The notes below the pieces were generated by a model that was not told the DNA's origin, did no database searches, and saw only the letters and a list, made by a program, of their open reading frames with translations. Source: an uncultured Bdellovibrionales bacterium (lineage in GTDB: Bacteria; Patescibacteriota; Minisyncoccia; Moranbacterales; UBA1568). Taken from it: 33,117 nt of DNA. The translations under genes and the position numbers were made by a program. Below are positions 8,812 through 13,038 of the stretch, piece by piece. Numbering within the stretch: position 1 is the stretch's first letter; each line of letters opens with the position of its first letter. The stretch is taken from contig CAYVDI010000004.1 of the NCBI GenBank assembly GCA_964450795.1, positions 4,207-37,323 of the forward strand, in the 5' to 3' direction.

Positions 8812-10124
8812 TACTTTCGCGCCACGAATCCGGCGAGCAGGAAGAAAAATAATAGCCCGAAATGCGATGACCAGAACCAGTGGTCGAGGAGGAGGCTCGG
8901 AAGAAGAATGAGAAGGATTGCGGATTTTTGGCTGAAGATTCTTGATCGAAAGACAGAAACCAGGAAGCCGACAAACAGGATCAAACCGATCACTCCAAGC
9001 TCGGCGAAAACGAGCGCAAAAACGTTATGCGCCGGCTGAACGCTCCAGACGGGACGAGTCGGCTCGTTTTCCATGACCACCTTCGTGAAGTTTCCCGCAC
9101 CGACCCCGATGATCGGATGCGCCGCGATGAGCGTCTTCGCATCGGCAAGCGACACGATCCGTTCCGATACCGATCCTTCCCGCGTGATCGTCGCCCCGTC
9201 GAACCGCGGAAATATCTGGTCGCGGAGAACAAAAACGAACATGAATAAGGCAAGAGCAAGTACCCCGAGTATCCGCGCACGCTGTTTTCCCCATACGTGA
9301 TACCTGATACAAGACACACAATACGCGACGATTCCCATCGCCGCTCCCAGCCATGCCGCGCGGGAGAACGTGAGGATGAGACCCAAGAGAAGAATGGCGA
9401 ATGAGGAATAGCAAATGATGAATGAAAACCACGATTCCCGATTCCGTATACGTGATATGTGATACGAAATACCCAATACGAAAACTGCCGCCAAGAATCC
9501 CCCGAGCATGTTCGGATGTGGAAAGGATCCATATGCGCGGAGAAAGCGCTCCGTCTCGAGTTTGAGCACCGACGTTCCTGCCCACCACGATTCATGGGTG
9601 CTCATACCGAGGAGTGCGGACGCCGGACTCGACTGATAGAGAAACTGCCCTACCGCAAGCATGCTTTGCAGCACCGCCGCCGCGAGCAGGACTTTCACCG
9701 CGGTTTTCATGTCCACATCATCCAATGACCGGACAAGAAAAAACACGCCAGCCCCGAGAAGAAGCTTCACGAAGAAGTACCCTGCAAGCACGGCATCCTG
9801 CACCCAGAAAATAGAAAGACCGGACCAGAGAACAAGAAGGATAAGGGCTGTATCTTGTATTTTGTATTTCGTATTATGTATTTCCCCATACGTGATACCT
9901 GATACGAGATACTTGATACCAAACACGCGATGTTTCTTCAACCAACCAAAAACAACAAACACCAATGCACCAACCACGAACACGTCGGTTAAATACACCC
10001 CGATCGTTCCGTACTGCCACTTCTCCCCGTTCACAAACGGTTCGCGCAGCAAAAGCACCGTCTGGGACGGAAGAAGGAAGAGAAAGGAAAAAAATAGGTT
10101 TCTTGAAAGTTTCTTGAAGTCCAT
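8808..10124 (-). CDS. O-antigen ligase family protein (Wzy_C domain), carrying three repeat-derived insertions
   Basis: It is a polytopic protein. Wzy_C-type motifs are LRAYGSFPHPNMLGGFLA and TFSRAAWLGAAMG. Three loop segments (CIRYHVWGK, GISYHISRIRN, GIKYLVSGITYGEIHNTKYKIQDT) are encoded by GTAT/ATAC heptad arrays. Confidence 0.85.
   Translation of the reverse strand: MDFKKLSRNLFFSFLFLLPSQTVLLLREPFVNGEKWQYGTIGVYLTDVFVVGALVFVVFGWLKKHRVFGIKYLVSGITYGEIHNTKYKIQDTALILLVLWSGLSIFWVQDAVLAGYFFVKLLLGAGVFFLVRSLDDVDMKTAVKVLLAAAVLQSMLAVGQFLYQSSPASALLGMSTHESWWAGTSVLKLETERFLRAYGSFPHPNMLGGFLAAVFVLGISYHISRIRNRESWFSFIICYSSFAILLLGLILTFSRAAWLGAAMGIVAYCVSCIRYHVWGKQRARILGVLALALFMFVFVLRDQIFPRFDGATITREGSVSERIVSLADAKTLIAAHPIIGVGAGNFTKVVMENEPTRPVWSVQPAHNVFALVFAELGVIGLILFVGFLVSVFRSRIFSQKSAILLILLPSLLLDHWFWSSHFGLLFFFLLAGFVARKY
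9290..9324 (+). repeat. Heptad array B (five nnnATAC units) inside the Wzy_C CDS
   Basis: The array reads CCCATAC GTGATAC CTGATAC AAGACAC ACAATAC. Positions 9286-9310 are identical to 9881-9905. Confidence 0.9.
9445..9479 (+). repeat. Heptad array C (five nnnATAC units) inside the Wzy_C CDS
   Basis: The array reads CGTATAC GTGATAT GTGATAC GAAATAC CCAATAC. Confidence 0.85.
9850..9926 (+). repeat. Heptad array D: five GTATnnn units followed in phase by six nnnATAC units (imperfect 77-nt palindrome) inside the Wzy_C CDS
   Basis: The array reads GTATCTT GTATTTT GTATTTC GTATTAT GTATTTC CCCATAC GTGATAC CTGATAC GAGATAC TTGATAC CAAACAC. Confidence 0.9.
10098..10119 (+). repeat. Tandem 11-mer (GTTTCTTGAAA GTTTCTTGAAG) at codons 3-10 of the Wzy_C gene
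   Basis: Two adjacent 11-nt copies match at 10 of 11 positions. On the coding strand they read TTCAAGAAACT TTCAAGAAACC directly after ATG GAC. Confidence 0.8.
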
Positions 10125-10162
10125 ACATTGCTTATACTAGCACTTTTTGCTACCCTGCGCAT

Positions 10163-10783
10163 ATGCGATTCATCACCATTTCCGGTGTTGACGGATCCGG
10201 AAAATCAACCCAGCTCGCACTCCTCAGGGCGCATCTCGAAAAGACCGGGAAAAAGGCCGCCGTTTTCAATGCGGTCGAATTCTCGCTCGCGAACCGTCTC
10301 GCCCGTTTATTCAAAGGAGACAAGACATTCGAACCGGGAAAGGAAAAGGCTGTCACGAAGGCTTCGTGGCTGTCCGTCGCCCTCCGGGAAAAATTCCTCT
10401 TCGTCGACTTCATCCGTTTCCACTTTTTCAGGCGAAGACTCGAAAGGCAAGGATTCGACTTTCTCCTCTCCGACCGTTCGTTCTACGATTCGCTCATCAA
10501 CATCGCTTACCTTTCCGACTCCCGGGTTCTTCGGTTCGGGATGCGGACTCTCGAAGCATTTCTCCCCAAGACCGATACGGCTCTGTACCTGGATATCTCC
10601 CCGGAAGTCGTCATGCGTCGCGATCGGATACCCGAACAAGGAATGGACTACCTCGCTCGGAAGCGCTCACTCTTTCTTGAGAACCGTAACCGGTGGGGTC
10701 TCGTCACCATTGATGCGGATCAGCCGAAGGAAACCGTTTTTTCGGAAATACGGCGCCAGACAAAACTCGCAGGAGACGCTTGA
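10163..10783 (+). CDS. Thymidylate kinase family protein (dTMP-kinase-like P-loop kinase)
   Basis: The N-terminal P-loop is MRFITISGVDGSGKSTQ. It has a DR..Y motif (DRSFYDSL) and a LID-like YLDISPEVVMRRDR. The length of about 206 aa is typical of Tmk. Confidence 0.7.
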   Translation: MRFITISGVDGSGKSTQLALLRAHLEKTGKKAAVFNAVEFSLANRLARLFKGDKTFEPGKEKAVTKASWLSVALREKFLFVDFIRFHFFRRRLERQGFDFLLSDRSFYDSLINIAYLSDSRVLRFGMRTLEAFLPKTDTALYLDISPEVVMRRDRIPEQGMDYLARKRSLFLENRNRWGLVTIDADQPKETVFSEIRRQTKLAGDA

Positions 10784-10808
10784 CAGGGATCTTCCGCTGC
10801 GATACAAT
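10780..10808 (+). promoter_or_regulatory. Perfect consensus sigma70 promoter (TTGACA-17 nt-TACAAT)
   Basis: TTGACA lies at 10780-10785, followed by a 17-nt spacer and TACAAT at 10803-10808. It overlaps the last codons of the kinase-like gene. No convincing ORF follows for about 350 nt. Confidence 0.65.
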
Positions 10809-10814
10809 ATCTCA

Positions 10815-11135
10815 GCTGTCCTTTTTCGGAATCAGCTTCCGGAAAGCGCTTTCTCTGTGAGAAATCGGTTTCCGGAAGCGGAGATGCACGAAGTGTCGCA
10901 ATTTCGGGCGGCGAACACGTCGGGAGACCGGATTACCACTCCTGGTTGACGGTTCCCCATGATCGGCGAATGTGGTCCGGTGAGCAGGCAAGGTGACAGT
11001 CCACTGTGGCGCGCCAAGGCCGATGCTCCCGAAACCCATCCGATCCACGTCGTTACGCCCCTCGGCTCCGACACGCATTTCCGCTTCCGCCCCACTTCCA
11101 AGGCTTCCCAACGCGGCGGCCTTTTTTCTTTTTCC
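10815..11135 (+). ncRNA. Candidate structured RNA (free-standing sRNA or long cis-regulatory leader of the flippase gene); class not recognised
   Basis: It starts about 7 nt after the consensus -10. A 19-bp hairpin spans 10835-10879. A long-range helix pairs 10874-10887 with 11075-11088 (14 bp, one G-U) and 10893-10898 with 11069-11074 (6 bp). It ends in a T6CT5 tract. Only low-quality ORFs cover this region. Confidence 0.45.
11100..11135 (+). terminator. Candidate intrinsic terminator ending the structured RNA or leader
   Basis: A short GC stem is possible, either AAGGC 11100-11104 with GCCTT 11119-11123 or CCGCC 11087-11091 with GGCGG 11115-11119. TTTTTTCTTTTT follows, about 25 nt before the flippase ATG. 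Confidence 0.45.
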
Positions 11136-11159
11136 AGGAATTTCCGCTAGAATAAGGAT

Positions 11160-12641
11160 ATGAAAAACTTCTCAAAAGCGCTCGTGTGGCTGACCGCCTC
11201 CGAAATCGTTTTCAATCTTGCCGGCTACGTCGTCCAATCGGCGGTCGGACGGATCCTCGGTCCCGCAGACTACGGCCGATACGGCATCATCGTCACGCTG
11301 ACGACCATGATCATCATCCTCGTCGGAAACGGTATCCCGACAGCGATGTCGAAATATCTCTCCGAGATCATGGAGCGCGACCCCGCACAGATTCCCGGCA
11401 TAAAACGCCAGGCGCTCCGCCTGCAAACGATACTCATGCTTGGCGTCACGGCCGTCTTCTTTCTTTCATCCCCGCTGATCGCGTTTCTCCTCCATGATCC
11501 GAGCCTGACACCCCTCTTCCAGCTTTCCTCGCTTATCATTCCCTCGTTCGCCGCAGCGTCCTTCTACTTCTACTATTACACCGGGCTTCATTTCTTCCGT
11601 CTCCAGGCGATGCTCAAGATGACCCGCGGCCTTGCCCGCATCCTCTTCATCGTCGGATTCACCTACTTCTTCGGAGTGAAAGGAGCCGTTTCCGGATACA
11701 TCGCCGCACCACTCCTCGTCTTCGCGATCGCTTTCGTCGCCGATAGGCTTTTCACGCACCGTTACTTTCCCGAGACGAGAGCGCAGAAATCGGAAGTCGC
11801 CGCCTTTTCCTCAAAAAAAATTCTCCTGTACGCCTGGCCGCTCACACTCTTCCTTCTCTTCTATGAGCTTATCACCACCATCGACCTCTACCTCGTGAAG
11901 AGCATCCTCCAAAGCGACTACCAGACCGGACTCTACAACGCCGCCATCACCGTCGGCCGGATCCCCTACTATCTCTTCTATGCGCTCACCATCATCCTTC
12001 TGCCAGCGATATCGAAGACGACCGCCGAGCGGAACCACGAGGAGACTGAACGCCTCGTCAACAGGTCGCTCCGACTCCTTATCCTCCTCCTTTTCCCGAT
12101 GGTCACCCTCCTCATCGCATACACCCCGCAAGTCCTCGACCTCTTCTATGGCGCACGGTATGCGGCGGCAACCGTCCCGATGCGGATCTTCACGCTCGGT
12201 GTCGGATTCATGACGGTTTTCTACGTCCTCTCGTTCGCGCTCAACGGCGCCGGACTCGTGAAAATCCCGATGAAGCTTTCCCTGTATGGCCTCGTCGGTT
12301 CCGTCGCCCTGAACATCCTGTTCATCCCACGGTTCGGTCTTGTAGGCGCAGCCGGAGCGACCACCCTCGCTTCGCTCGTACTCATGATCGGAATCCTCAT
12401 TGCCACCGAACGACACTTCAAGGTGAAAGTCTCCGGACTCGCCGTTTTCCGCTCGATCATGGCGGCTTCTCTCATATTCTCCCTCGCCTTTCTTCTTCCA
12501 GAACGACACCTGTTCTTCATCGCATCCGGAATCGTGCTTTTTGTCGGTTATTTCTGGTTTTTACGGCTTATCGGCGAGCTTTCCGATGAAGACCTTTCCC
12601 CGATCAAAAAACTCCTCAGCGGAAAAGGATCTGCCAAATGA
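11160..12641 (+). CDS. Polysaccharide/oligosaccharide flippase (Wzx-like, MOP superfamily)
   Basis: It is 493 aa with about 14 hydrophobic helices. The N-terminus is typical of Polysacc_synt proteins (KALVWLTASEIVFNLAGYVVQSAVGRILGPADYGRYG). An SD-like AAGGA lies 4 nt upstream of the ATG. Confidence 0.85.
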   Translation: MKNFSKALVWLTASEIVFNLAGYVVQSAVGRILGPADYGRYGIIVTLTTMIIILVGNGIPTAMSKYLSEIMERDPAQIPGIKRQALRLQTILMLGVTAVFFLSSPLIAFLLHDPSLTPLFQLSSLIIPSFAAASFYFYYYTGLHFFRLQAMLKMTRGLARILFIVGFTYFFGVKGAVSGYIAAPLLVFAIAFVADRLFTHRYFPETRAQKSEVAAFSSKKILLYAWPLTLFLLFYELITTIDLYLVKSILQSDYQTGLYNAAITVGRIPYYLFYALTIILLPAISKTTAERNHEETERLVNRSLRLLILLLFPMVTLLIAYTPQVLDLFYGARYAAATVPMRIFTLGVGFMTVFYVLSFALNGAGLVKIPMKLSLYGLVGSVALNILFIPRFGLVGAAGATTLASLVLMIGILIATERHFKVKVSGLAVFRSIMAASLIFSLAFLLPERHLFFIASGIVLFVGYFWFLRLIGELSDEDLSPIKKLLSGKGSAK

Positions 12642-12647
12642 CGGCTC

Positions 12648-12676
12648 TTGACGGGAAATGAACAACATGCTACACT
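12648..12676 (+). promoter_or_regulatory. Candidate promoter of orphan gene 1 (TTGACG-17 nt-TACACT)
   Basis: TTGACG lies at 12648-12653 and TACACT at 12671-12676. It shares the 10-mer TTGACGGGAA with the promoter at 13054. Confidence 0.5.
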
Positions 12677-12730
12677 ATCCGAGTCCCAGAAGGACTTTTT
12701 TATTTGTTCACAATAAGGAAGGAGATAGTA

Positions 12731-12985
12731 GTGAACCATGAAGAAAGGAAAGAAGTGATACTTCACATCGTTTACAGCATCGTATGCCAGAAGCAGGGCC
12801 GGCAACGGTGCAGTCACGATCAAGTATTTCTGGAATGGTGCGCCGAATATGCGACCATCATCAAGGAACTCTTCACCACTGAACTCGTGGAACAATACCG
12901 GGACGCAGTGATCGCCGAGGACAAGATGAGGATCACGCAAGACCTCGCTGAGAAATTCTTGGAGAGTACCGCACTCGCCGCCTGA
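12731..12985 (+). CDS. Hypothetical small protein (orphan, about 85 aa, predicted helical)
   Basis: A GTG at 12731 sits 5 nt after AAGGAAGGAGA (12715-12725); the ORF track start is TTG 12704. It has its own promoter and a strong terminator. No family was recognised. Confidence 0.45.
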   Translation: MNHEERKEVILHIVYSIVCQKQGRQRCSHDQVFLEWCAEYATIIKELFTTELVEQYRDAVIAEDKMRITQDLAEKFLESTALAA

Positions 12986-12995
12986 AATCAGGCCG

Positions 12996-13038
12996 AAGGC
13001 CGCACCCGATATCGTTCGGGTACGGCCTTTCTCTTTTC
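12996..13038 (+). terminator. Strong intrinsic terminator
   Basis: AAGGCCGCACCCGA (12996-13009) pairs with TCGGGTACGGCCTT (13016-13029), giving 14 bp with one mismatch and a 6-nt loop. TCTCTTTTC follows. Confidence 0.7.

Follow-up and report, generated by a model that had tools for sequence, protein, structure and literature searches.

A putative free-standing RNA gene upstream of a flippase gene

The stretch of DNA analysed here (33,117 nucleotides, contig C4:4207-37323 of genome G000; hereafter the window) carries, at 10780-11135 between a dTMP-kinase-like gene and a flippase gene, an element that, with modest confidence, we regard as probably encoding a structured non-coding RNA of ~320 nt as a free-standing gene. 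Judged by sequence comparison, this RNA would belong to a small family, not described before, whose members all come from a single genus-level clade of Candidatus Moranbacteria, within the Candidate Phyla Radiation (CPR). The window's copy is called W below. Our reading follows from the unit having its own promoter and terminator, a covarying long-range closing helix (P1), a tandem duplication of the unit in one relative, and no conserved open reading frame (ORF). A preliminary description of this DNA had placed a free-standing RNA beside a riboswitch- or attenuator-type leader of the flippase gene. Conservation of the promoter geometry, P1, and terminator, the tandem duplicate, and a separate -10 box for the flippase gene favor the former.

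The host genome comprises 0.906 Mb in 66 contigs, with 54.5% GC. The synteny of the kinase-like and flippase genes holds across the whole order, and the gap between them is mostly 0-60 nt, with no leader in most of the order. Therefore, the 376-nt gap of the window represents an insertion.

Homologues of W were found at the equivalent site, from the dTMP-kinase-like gene to the flippase gene, in six other lineages. The family set consists of nine sequences from seven lineages: W, G001 and G003 of the same genus, and the metagenomic loci L093, L094, L095/96, and L097, the last with two copies (L097A and L097B). The closer relatives were obtained by protein search and exact look-ups and have flippase identities of 75-79%, while a flippase-based metagenome scan gave identities of ≤72%. 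W, L093, and L097 are long forms of ~245-330 nt, and G001, G003, L094, and L095/96 are short forms of ~170-180 nt. The preliminary description had pointed to homologous intergenic regions upstream of the flippase gene in related genomes as a check, and these regions contain a conserved unit with compensatory changes in the seven lineages.

All nine sequences have TTGACA (TTGACC in L097A), a spacer of exactly 17 nt whose sequence is free, and TAnnAT. They also have in common a closing helix with the core GGAAGCGG/CCGCUUCC and an unpaired linker of 7-13 nt, which contains 54% C and 4% G and shows an unpaired probability of 0.88-1.0. A hairpin and T-tract terminator is kept in position in all relatives, whose stems are strong (9-11 bp). 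In L097, two complete promoter-RNA-terminator units are arranged in tandem (1148-1392 and ~1436-1762), of which the upstream copy, L097A, is the more window-like. A 94-aa gene called on the minus strand of this tandem region is probably spurious.

The TTGACA-17-TACAAT promoter and the T6CT5 terminator claimed for the window in the preliminary description were both confirmed, the latter behind a weak hairpin (Table 1). Transcription of the RNA would start near 10815. Near-consensus promoters occur at 36 sites in the genome against ~5 expected by our own estimate, mostly upstream of genes, and the standard terminator of this genome is a hairpin with T4-6 C T4-6 behind it (113 sites). The TGA stop codon of the kinase-like gene lies inside the -35 hexamer of the RNA promoter. 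Genome-wide, the combination of the 14-bp helix, the promoter, and the terminator was found at this site only.

Compensatory changes in the closing helix and the short forms

In P1, five of the ten core pairs covary across the nine sequences, with changes on both sides. The alignment of the five short-form sequences (RNAalifold) gave 36 consensus pairs, 10 of which show compensatory change on both sides. In this alignment, 91.9% of the cells were paired vs. 82.7 ± 1.7% in shuffles, none of which reached the observed value (0/500), and 40-51% with slid partners. The compensatory changes uphold four helices of the short form, and the interior of this form is conserved as well. As read from the sequences, the 5′ hairpin of the long forms also shows such changes, namely a replacement of G-C by A-U from W to L097A and one of A-U by G-C from L097B to L093.

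Compensatory changes in P1 would equally keep an inverted repeat in DNA, and the 14+6-bp helix could then reflect inverted repeats that belong to an invertible segment (phase switch), a foldback element, or a mobile element. A sister clade with a 127-bp segment in both orientations at the same gap, bounded by perfect 29-bp inverted repeats, raises the question of whether P1 is likewise an inversion repeat. However, the G.U intermediates of P1 are compatible with RNA from the plus strand only, since DNA, like the minus strand, would have A/C mismatches in their place. The segment has a single orientation in all eight same-species assemblies and all seven lineages, with no flipped copy at the assembly level, and no promoter-like site was found inside it on either strand; an inverton was rejected on these grounds. 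Furthermore, the promoter and terminator of the unit lie outside the repeats. The element is single-copy in the genome and is thus not a miniature inverted-repeat transposable element (MITE), although the preliminary description had allowed that the repeats might prove to be dispersed MITE-like ends. Taken together, we consider a DNA-level element very improbable.

The segment of the sister clade was observed as follows. Between L071 (Ga0210034_1000354) and L031 (Ga0051980_10003833), the flanks of the kinase-flippase gap are identical, and the 127-bp interior, bounded by the perfect 29-bp inverted repeat ATATTTTTCCAAAACTTTTTTATTTTCTT, is reverse-complemented (125/127). From these sequences of two metagenomes, the stretch just before the flippase gene is a candidate for an invertible segment, or else the product of an assembler mis-orientation. 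Its conserved core (GGTAACATTTCTGATGAG...GAGTCAGAAATGTTCGGCG) is also present in L098 and L100-L103 and, in more diverged form, in L027/28.

Predicted fold of the window copy

The minimum free energy (MFE) of W is -133.4 kcal/mol, with z = -3.6 for the plus strand and -2.4 for the minus strand against dinucleotide shuffles. The predicted fold is of moderate significance for the W sequence alone. The 19-bp hairpin at the 5′ end and both long-range helices of the preliminary description, P1 and a second, 6-bp helix (P2), were recovered, the two helices at exactly the same coordinates in the MFE structure (Table 1). On the other hand, the pairing of ATCGGC (10962-10967) with 11019-11024 proposed there is absent from the MFE structure, where 10961-10966 pairs with 11040-11045 instead. 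P2 is an extension present in W and missing from the short forms. The block of the P2 and P1 3′ strands is the only part of the RNA body that can be aligned to the same-genus loci L014/L015. In the model, the linker that follows is a candidate seed or protein-binding site.

The genome is 4- to 8-fold enriched in TTCCGG, TTTCCG, and CGGAAR words, within genes too, and this enrichment inflates apparent hairpins and "motifs". "ATTTCCG" and TTCCGGAA were rejected as special motifs in view of a 5- to 17-fold over-representation of such words across the genome. Assemblies of the window's species stem from ERZ27283032, ERZ27282949, SRR6837583/71, SRR14610229/234/251, and JGI 3300015608. In L109, a scaffold of the same species (JGI 3300015608), the region equivalent to 11050-11080 of the window has a 29-nt deletion that ends in NN and affects the 3′ strands of both P2 and P1. 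This deletion is probably a scaffolding artefact at repeated ATTTCCGC words, with heterogeneity as the alternative.

Table 1 Positions of the RNA unit's features and of the flanking genes in the window.
Feature	Position	Strand	Basis or remark
Sigma-70-type RNA promoter: TTGACA (10780-10785), 17-nt spacer, TACAAT (10803-10808)	10780..10808	+	11/12 consensus matches
5′ hairpin, 19 bp if folded alone; long forms only	10835..10879	+	-30.1 kcal/mol, z = -5.0
P1 5′ strand, GGAAGCGGAGAUGC	10874..10887	+	MFE pairing with 11075-11088, 14 bp, one G.U
P2 5′ strand, GUGUCG	10893..10898	+	MFE pairing with 11069-11074, 6 bp
Variable interior domain, two branched hairpins in MFE	10899..11068	+	Sequence unconserved in relatives
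3′ strands of P2 (CGACAC) and P1 (GCAUUUCCGCUUCC)	11069..11088	+	MFE
Unpaired C-rich, G-poor linker, GCCCCACUUCC	11089..11099	+	Unpaired probability 0.99
Intrinsic terminator: weak hairpin (11100-11123), then T6CT5 (11122-11133)	11100..11133	+	Sequence, folding
Putative flippase promoter region: TTTCCGC, TAGAAT (-10, 11148-11153), 6 nt to ATG	11141..11159	+	Conserved in relatives
Upstream gene: divergent dTMP-kinase-family P-loop protein, 206 aa	10163..10783	+	Pfam Thymidylate_kin (N-terminal part only)
Downstream gene: MOP-family (SpoVB/MurJ/Wzx-like) flippase, 493 aa	11160..12641	+	Profile matches

A separate promoter for the flippase gene and the leader alternative

No separate promoter for the flippase gene had been noticed in the preliminary description, but a conserved TAGAAT box lies 6 nt before the ATG (Table 1). 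The tail containing this box aligns with L014/L015 at z = 10-12. In all relatives, a TTTCCGCTAGAAT -10 box follows the terminator, with 8-9 nt from the TTTTCNNTTT core to TTCC by hand count. The distance from the box to the ATG is 6 nt in W, L095, G001, and G003, and 50-230 nt in L094, L093, and L097. The box thus stands at a near-constant distance from the T-tract in spite of the varying distance to the ATG, which is how a promoter would behave.

Genome-wide, TAnAAT shows a peak at exactly 6 nt before the first ATG (11 genes vs. ~4 at other spacings). In these genes, the box is mostly TAGAAT, often with a T-rich tract at ~-35, and the T-tract of a terminator often serves at the same time as the upstream portion of the next promoter. 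Examples are window 11148-11162, C22:8210(-), C2:27456(-), C6:10837(+), and C14:17353(+). By their sequences, these genes look like a class of leaderless mRNAs. Since the geometry of the flippase gene matches this class and its box is conserved, the gene probably has its own promoter and a leaderless start.

Alternatively, the consensus promoter at 10780 may be the main promoter of the flippase gene, and the structured RNA and terminator may form a cis-acting leader or attenuator, which would set read-through via a protein or alternative folding. The RNA unit is always located directly upstream of the flippase gene on the same strand. The terminator hairpin of W is weak (-9.7 kcal/mol), and the putative flippase promoter has a poor -35 by our reading. 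The last 6 nt of the 5′ hairpin are common to the P1 5′ strand in W, and a full alternative pairing exists in L097A, where AUCCGCUUCC is present twice so that the P1 5′ strand has two alternative partners. In view of the weak terminator of W, the two P1 partners in L097A, and the poor -35, we retain a leader as an explanation, although an unlikely one.

Several results argue against a leader. The preliminary description had proposed that mutually exclusive pairings act as a switch. The overlap of 6 nt does exist, but the competition between the 5′ hairpin and P1 in W is a 6-bp branch migration at their junction, and both helix cores persist (p>0.98). Forcing either form costs 4 kcal/mol, shifts only the helix boundary, and leaves the terminator unaffected. 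The short forms have no 5′ hairpin at all, and the terminators of the relatives have the strong stems described above. The two serial units in L097 would put two terminators ahead of the gene. In addition, the -10 box keeps its distance from the T-tract regardless of the position of the ATG, the 6-nt leaderless geometry is seen in 10 other genes, and most of the order has no leader in this gap. As for a riboswitch, no ligand-binding, aptamer-like core is conserved across the members, and no expression platform making or breaking a terminator or ribosome-binding site was found in W. Because such a core is not conserved, the riboswitch or attenuator reading of the preliminary description is unsupported.

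Narrow distribution, variable interior, and other inserts at the gap

Searches with the RNA itself recovered few members. A blastn search of the W RNA against 60 relatives gave no match. We built two covariance models, R1 from G001 and G003 and R2 from the five short forms; over 107 genomes of the taxonomic family, both matched only G001 and G003. The long form of W was recognised neither by R1 (filters off, 9000-13000) nor by R2 (run with default filters on the whole window), and R2 did not match the long forms in general. When GTDB genomes were scanned twice by pattern for the P1-terminator(-box) module, only the known members and chance matches came up. In the interior of the long forms, no 7-mer is present in ≥5 lineages beyond words of P1 and the T-tract. 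On the sequences compared, a conserved chassis surrounds a variable interior in this narrow and dispensable family.

These properties would also fit an RNA that is a by-product. A promoter-terminator cassette may simply uncouple the flippase gene from the upstream operon, or a neutral lineage-specific insert may sit in a gap that is a hot spot for insertions. Narrow distribution, dispensability, and a highly variable interior are consistent with this, as are the unrelated inserts in the gaps of relatives (DUF559-like ORFs, a 67-aa ORF, structured elements, and the invertible segment). However, P1 and the near-consensus -35 with 17-nt spacing are kept even where flippase identity has fallen to 59%. 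The RNA cores of G001 and G003 are 90-93% identical, matching the flippase coding sequence, whereas the neighbouring promoter spacer and terminator stem drift to 62-72%. The four short-form helices are maintained by compensatory changes. Moreover, across 426 bp, the eight assemblies of the window's species, taken as population samples, vary at two positions. The first falls in the 3′ end of the kinase-like gene; the second, 10856 in the triloop of the 5′ hairpin, is the only single-nucleotide polymorphism within the RNA. We therefore regard a by-product as quite unlikely, and a free-standing RNA gene as the preferred reading.

The inserts in other genera are diverse. The gaps of L007 and L029 contain an ORF that we read as DUF559-like (a reading only), and that of L007 is flanked by G/C-rich palindromes. 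The gap of L009 contains a 67-aa ORF with, by our reading, a strong Shine-Dalgarno sequence and a terminator, and that of L008 contains a 205-aa ORF. CCTCCTCCCCTGCCAAGGGGAGG-type palindromic elements were found in the gaps of L067 and L047. In L018 (G014:C2), L035, L074, and L034, a TTGACA-17-TAnnnT promoter in the gap is accompanied by 70-360 nt of structured sequence and by a T-tract terminator. A TAnAAT box also precedes the flippase gene in L018, L035, and L074, and L018 has three CGGACCC repeats. These four loci were not counted as family members, as they have no detectable similarity to the window's RNA family.

Coding potential and known RNA classes

The gap had been described as lacking a credible ORF, and this agrees with our results: the Pfam search of the gap ORFs gave no match, and over ~320 nt there is no convincing start and no credible ORF. 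Nevertheless, the unit has the same architecture as the mRNA of a small protein such as a type I toxin, which is closed by a 5′-3′ helix: a strong promoter, a long-range 5′-3′ helix, a terminator, tandem copies, and fast evolution. The short forms, as we read them, also have GGAGG 9 nt before an AUG buried in a hairpin. However, no peptide is conserved; L094, L014, and L015 share MP(D/G) only, and L095 stops after one codon. The frames of the window run through the terminator, and no ORF is hydrophobic or has a Pfam match. The differences between G001 and G003 in the single candidate peptide are all non-synonymous, and a search for an antisense promoter was negative. A small-protein mRNA is thus hardly credible as an explanation. 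Nor did tblastx find anything to suggest a pseudogene left over from the inserts of other genomes, and this origin was rejected too.

Search of the window against the covariance models of Rfam 15 gave nothing at gathering score and only sub-threshold hairpin look-alikes at E<10, and seven related or analogous loci gave nothing at E≤1. This accords with the preliminary comparison by eye, which had found that none of the RNA classes considered fits. Because two species of the genus lack the RNA, it cannot be a universal RNA. RNase P RNA was rejected since the real one is located elsewhere in the genome (C11:10699-11103), and tmRNA since it is likewise encoded elsewhere and ARAGORN finds none in the window. 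No signal recognition particle (SRP) model matched in the window. The SRP models RF00169 and RF01854 gave no match in the five genus genomes (G000-G004) either, although RNase P RNA and tmRNA were found there, and a motif search returned only weak SRP candidates, e.g., C13:5889(+). The SRP RNA of the genus is either very divergent or missing.

For 6S RNA, RF00013 has no match anywhere in the five genus genomes. The fold of our RNA is branched and not a rod with a central bubble, the RNA is absent from the locus in G002 and G004, and R2 finds none elsewhere. A Y RNA was rejected because Ro/TROVE (PF05731) is absent from all five genus genomes, despite rtcB being located 2.5 kb upstream. A CsrB/RsmZ-type sponge and an Hfq-dependent small RNA (sRNA) were rejected because CsrA (PF02599) and Hfq (PF17209), respectively, are absent from the same genomes. 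By contrast, three features expected of a free-standing sRNA gene are present in the sequences: a promoter and terminator of its own that are conserved, no coding signal, and compensatory change in three to seven independent lineages. In the literature, we found no description of this RNA or of regulatory RNAs in CPR/Patescibacteria.

Points that weigh against a free-standing RNA gene

The following observations count against our preferred reading. Only three short-form lineages are independent and only seven lineages are known overall, which keeps the covariation statistics modest. Long and short forms have only P1, the linker, and the flanking signals in common, and the homology of the two forms hence depends on synteny and P1. 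Compared with 400 random windows of its own genome, the fold of W lies only in the top 3% (GC-corrected z = -1.7). There are 46 further 8-bp helices with a P1-like core in the genome; the TTCCGGAA palindrome occurs 220 times vs. 12.8 expected (17-fold), and P1-type words are also common. Read-through into the flippase gene is possible, given the weak terminator of W. Of the five species in the genus, two (G002 and G004) lack the RNA family, as do the other 102 genomes of the taxonomic family, and therefore the RNA is dispensable. The absence of Hfq and CsrA is a further point of this kind.

Flanking genes

The kinase-like protein gave a full-length match to TIGR00041 with a score under the cut-off, and thymidylate kinases in the PDB also match it. 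The flippase is the sole strong MOP match in the genome, and one copy per genome was found in all 37 relatives searched. In the window, a Wzy_C gene is located between rtcB and the kinase-like gene. In one relative (L098:1-1273), the gene order is rtcB, kinase-like gene, and flippase gene, and rtcB directly adjoins the kinase-like gene.

Possible action and significance of the RNA

If the unit is a free-standing RNA gene, its RNA would be made at a high level and released at the T-tract, and it would presumably act in trans without Hfq. The most plausible action is that the exposed C-rich linker and/or the interior loops pair with G-rich ribosome-binding sites, or that the RNA binds a protein. 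The P1 clamp would shield the ends of the RNA. The location beside the flippase gene may be an inherited position and need not imply regulation of that gene.

A more far-reaching proposal is that of a "clamp-and-cargo" RNA. The promoter, P1, C-rich linker, and terminator would form a fixed chassis, while close relatives, and likewise the two tandem copies of L097, would differ through exchange or rebuilding of the interior. The interior would then specify different targets in a guide- or decoy-like manner in organisms without Hfq and CsrA. We put this forward, both parts taken together, as a speculation to which we give little credence. Were it true, the site upstream of the sole MOP flippase gene, with the invertible segment and the other inserts, would be a hot spot for rewiring surface-glycan export.

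The RNA unit adjoins the gene for the sole flippase of lipid-linked glycans and combines a strong promoter, covariation support, a conserved clamp, and a fast-changing interior. Its family, although small (seven lineages), would offer a concrete test case for RNA regulators in reduced cells with genomes of ~0.9 Mb and without Hfq and CsrA; the narrow distribution limits this value. The analysis also corrects the annotation logic at the locus, in that the flippase gene is probably leaderless with its own promoter rather than controlled by a riboswitch.

Comparison with known RNA systems

The riboswitch or attenuator leaders of polysaccharide genes (e.g., the c-di-GMP classes) resemble the present case in having a structured RNA and a terminator, here directly upstream of a glycan-flippase gene. 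They differ from it in that our RNA has no Rfam match to them at E<10, no conserved core, and no competition between terminator and antiterminator, and in that the gene has a separate promoter. 6S RNA is similar in its strong promoter and in the pairing of its ends in a closing stem, while the RNA family described here has a branched fold, matches no 6S model, and is missing from two species of the genus.

OmrA/OmrB and PrrF1/PrrF2 are encoded by free-standing, narrowly distributed bacterial sRNA genes, which form tandem paralogues whose ends are conserved and whose centres vary. The present family is like them in having its own promoter and terminator, no ORF, a length in or near the 100-300-nt range, a lineage-restricted distribution, the tandem in L097, and conserved ends around a varying middle. 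Unlike theirs, its genus has no Hfq, the long covarying 5′-3′ clamp is atypical of those sRNAs, and W, at ~320 nt, is large for an sRNA.

The C-rich-motif sRNAs of the RsaE/RoxS type in Firmicutes pair with G-rich Shine-Dalgarno regions without Hfq. The present RNA has no sequence or Rfam similarity to them, its C-rich tract is a linker and not in hairpin loops, and target pairing is conjectural. Nevertheless, it resembles them in its unpaired C-rich, G-poor stretch adjoining the terminator and in occurring where Hfq is absent.

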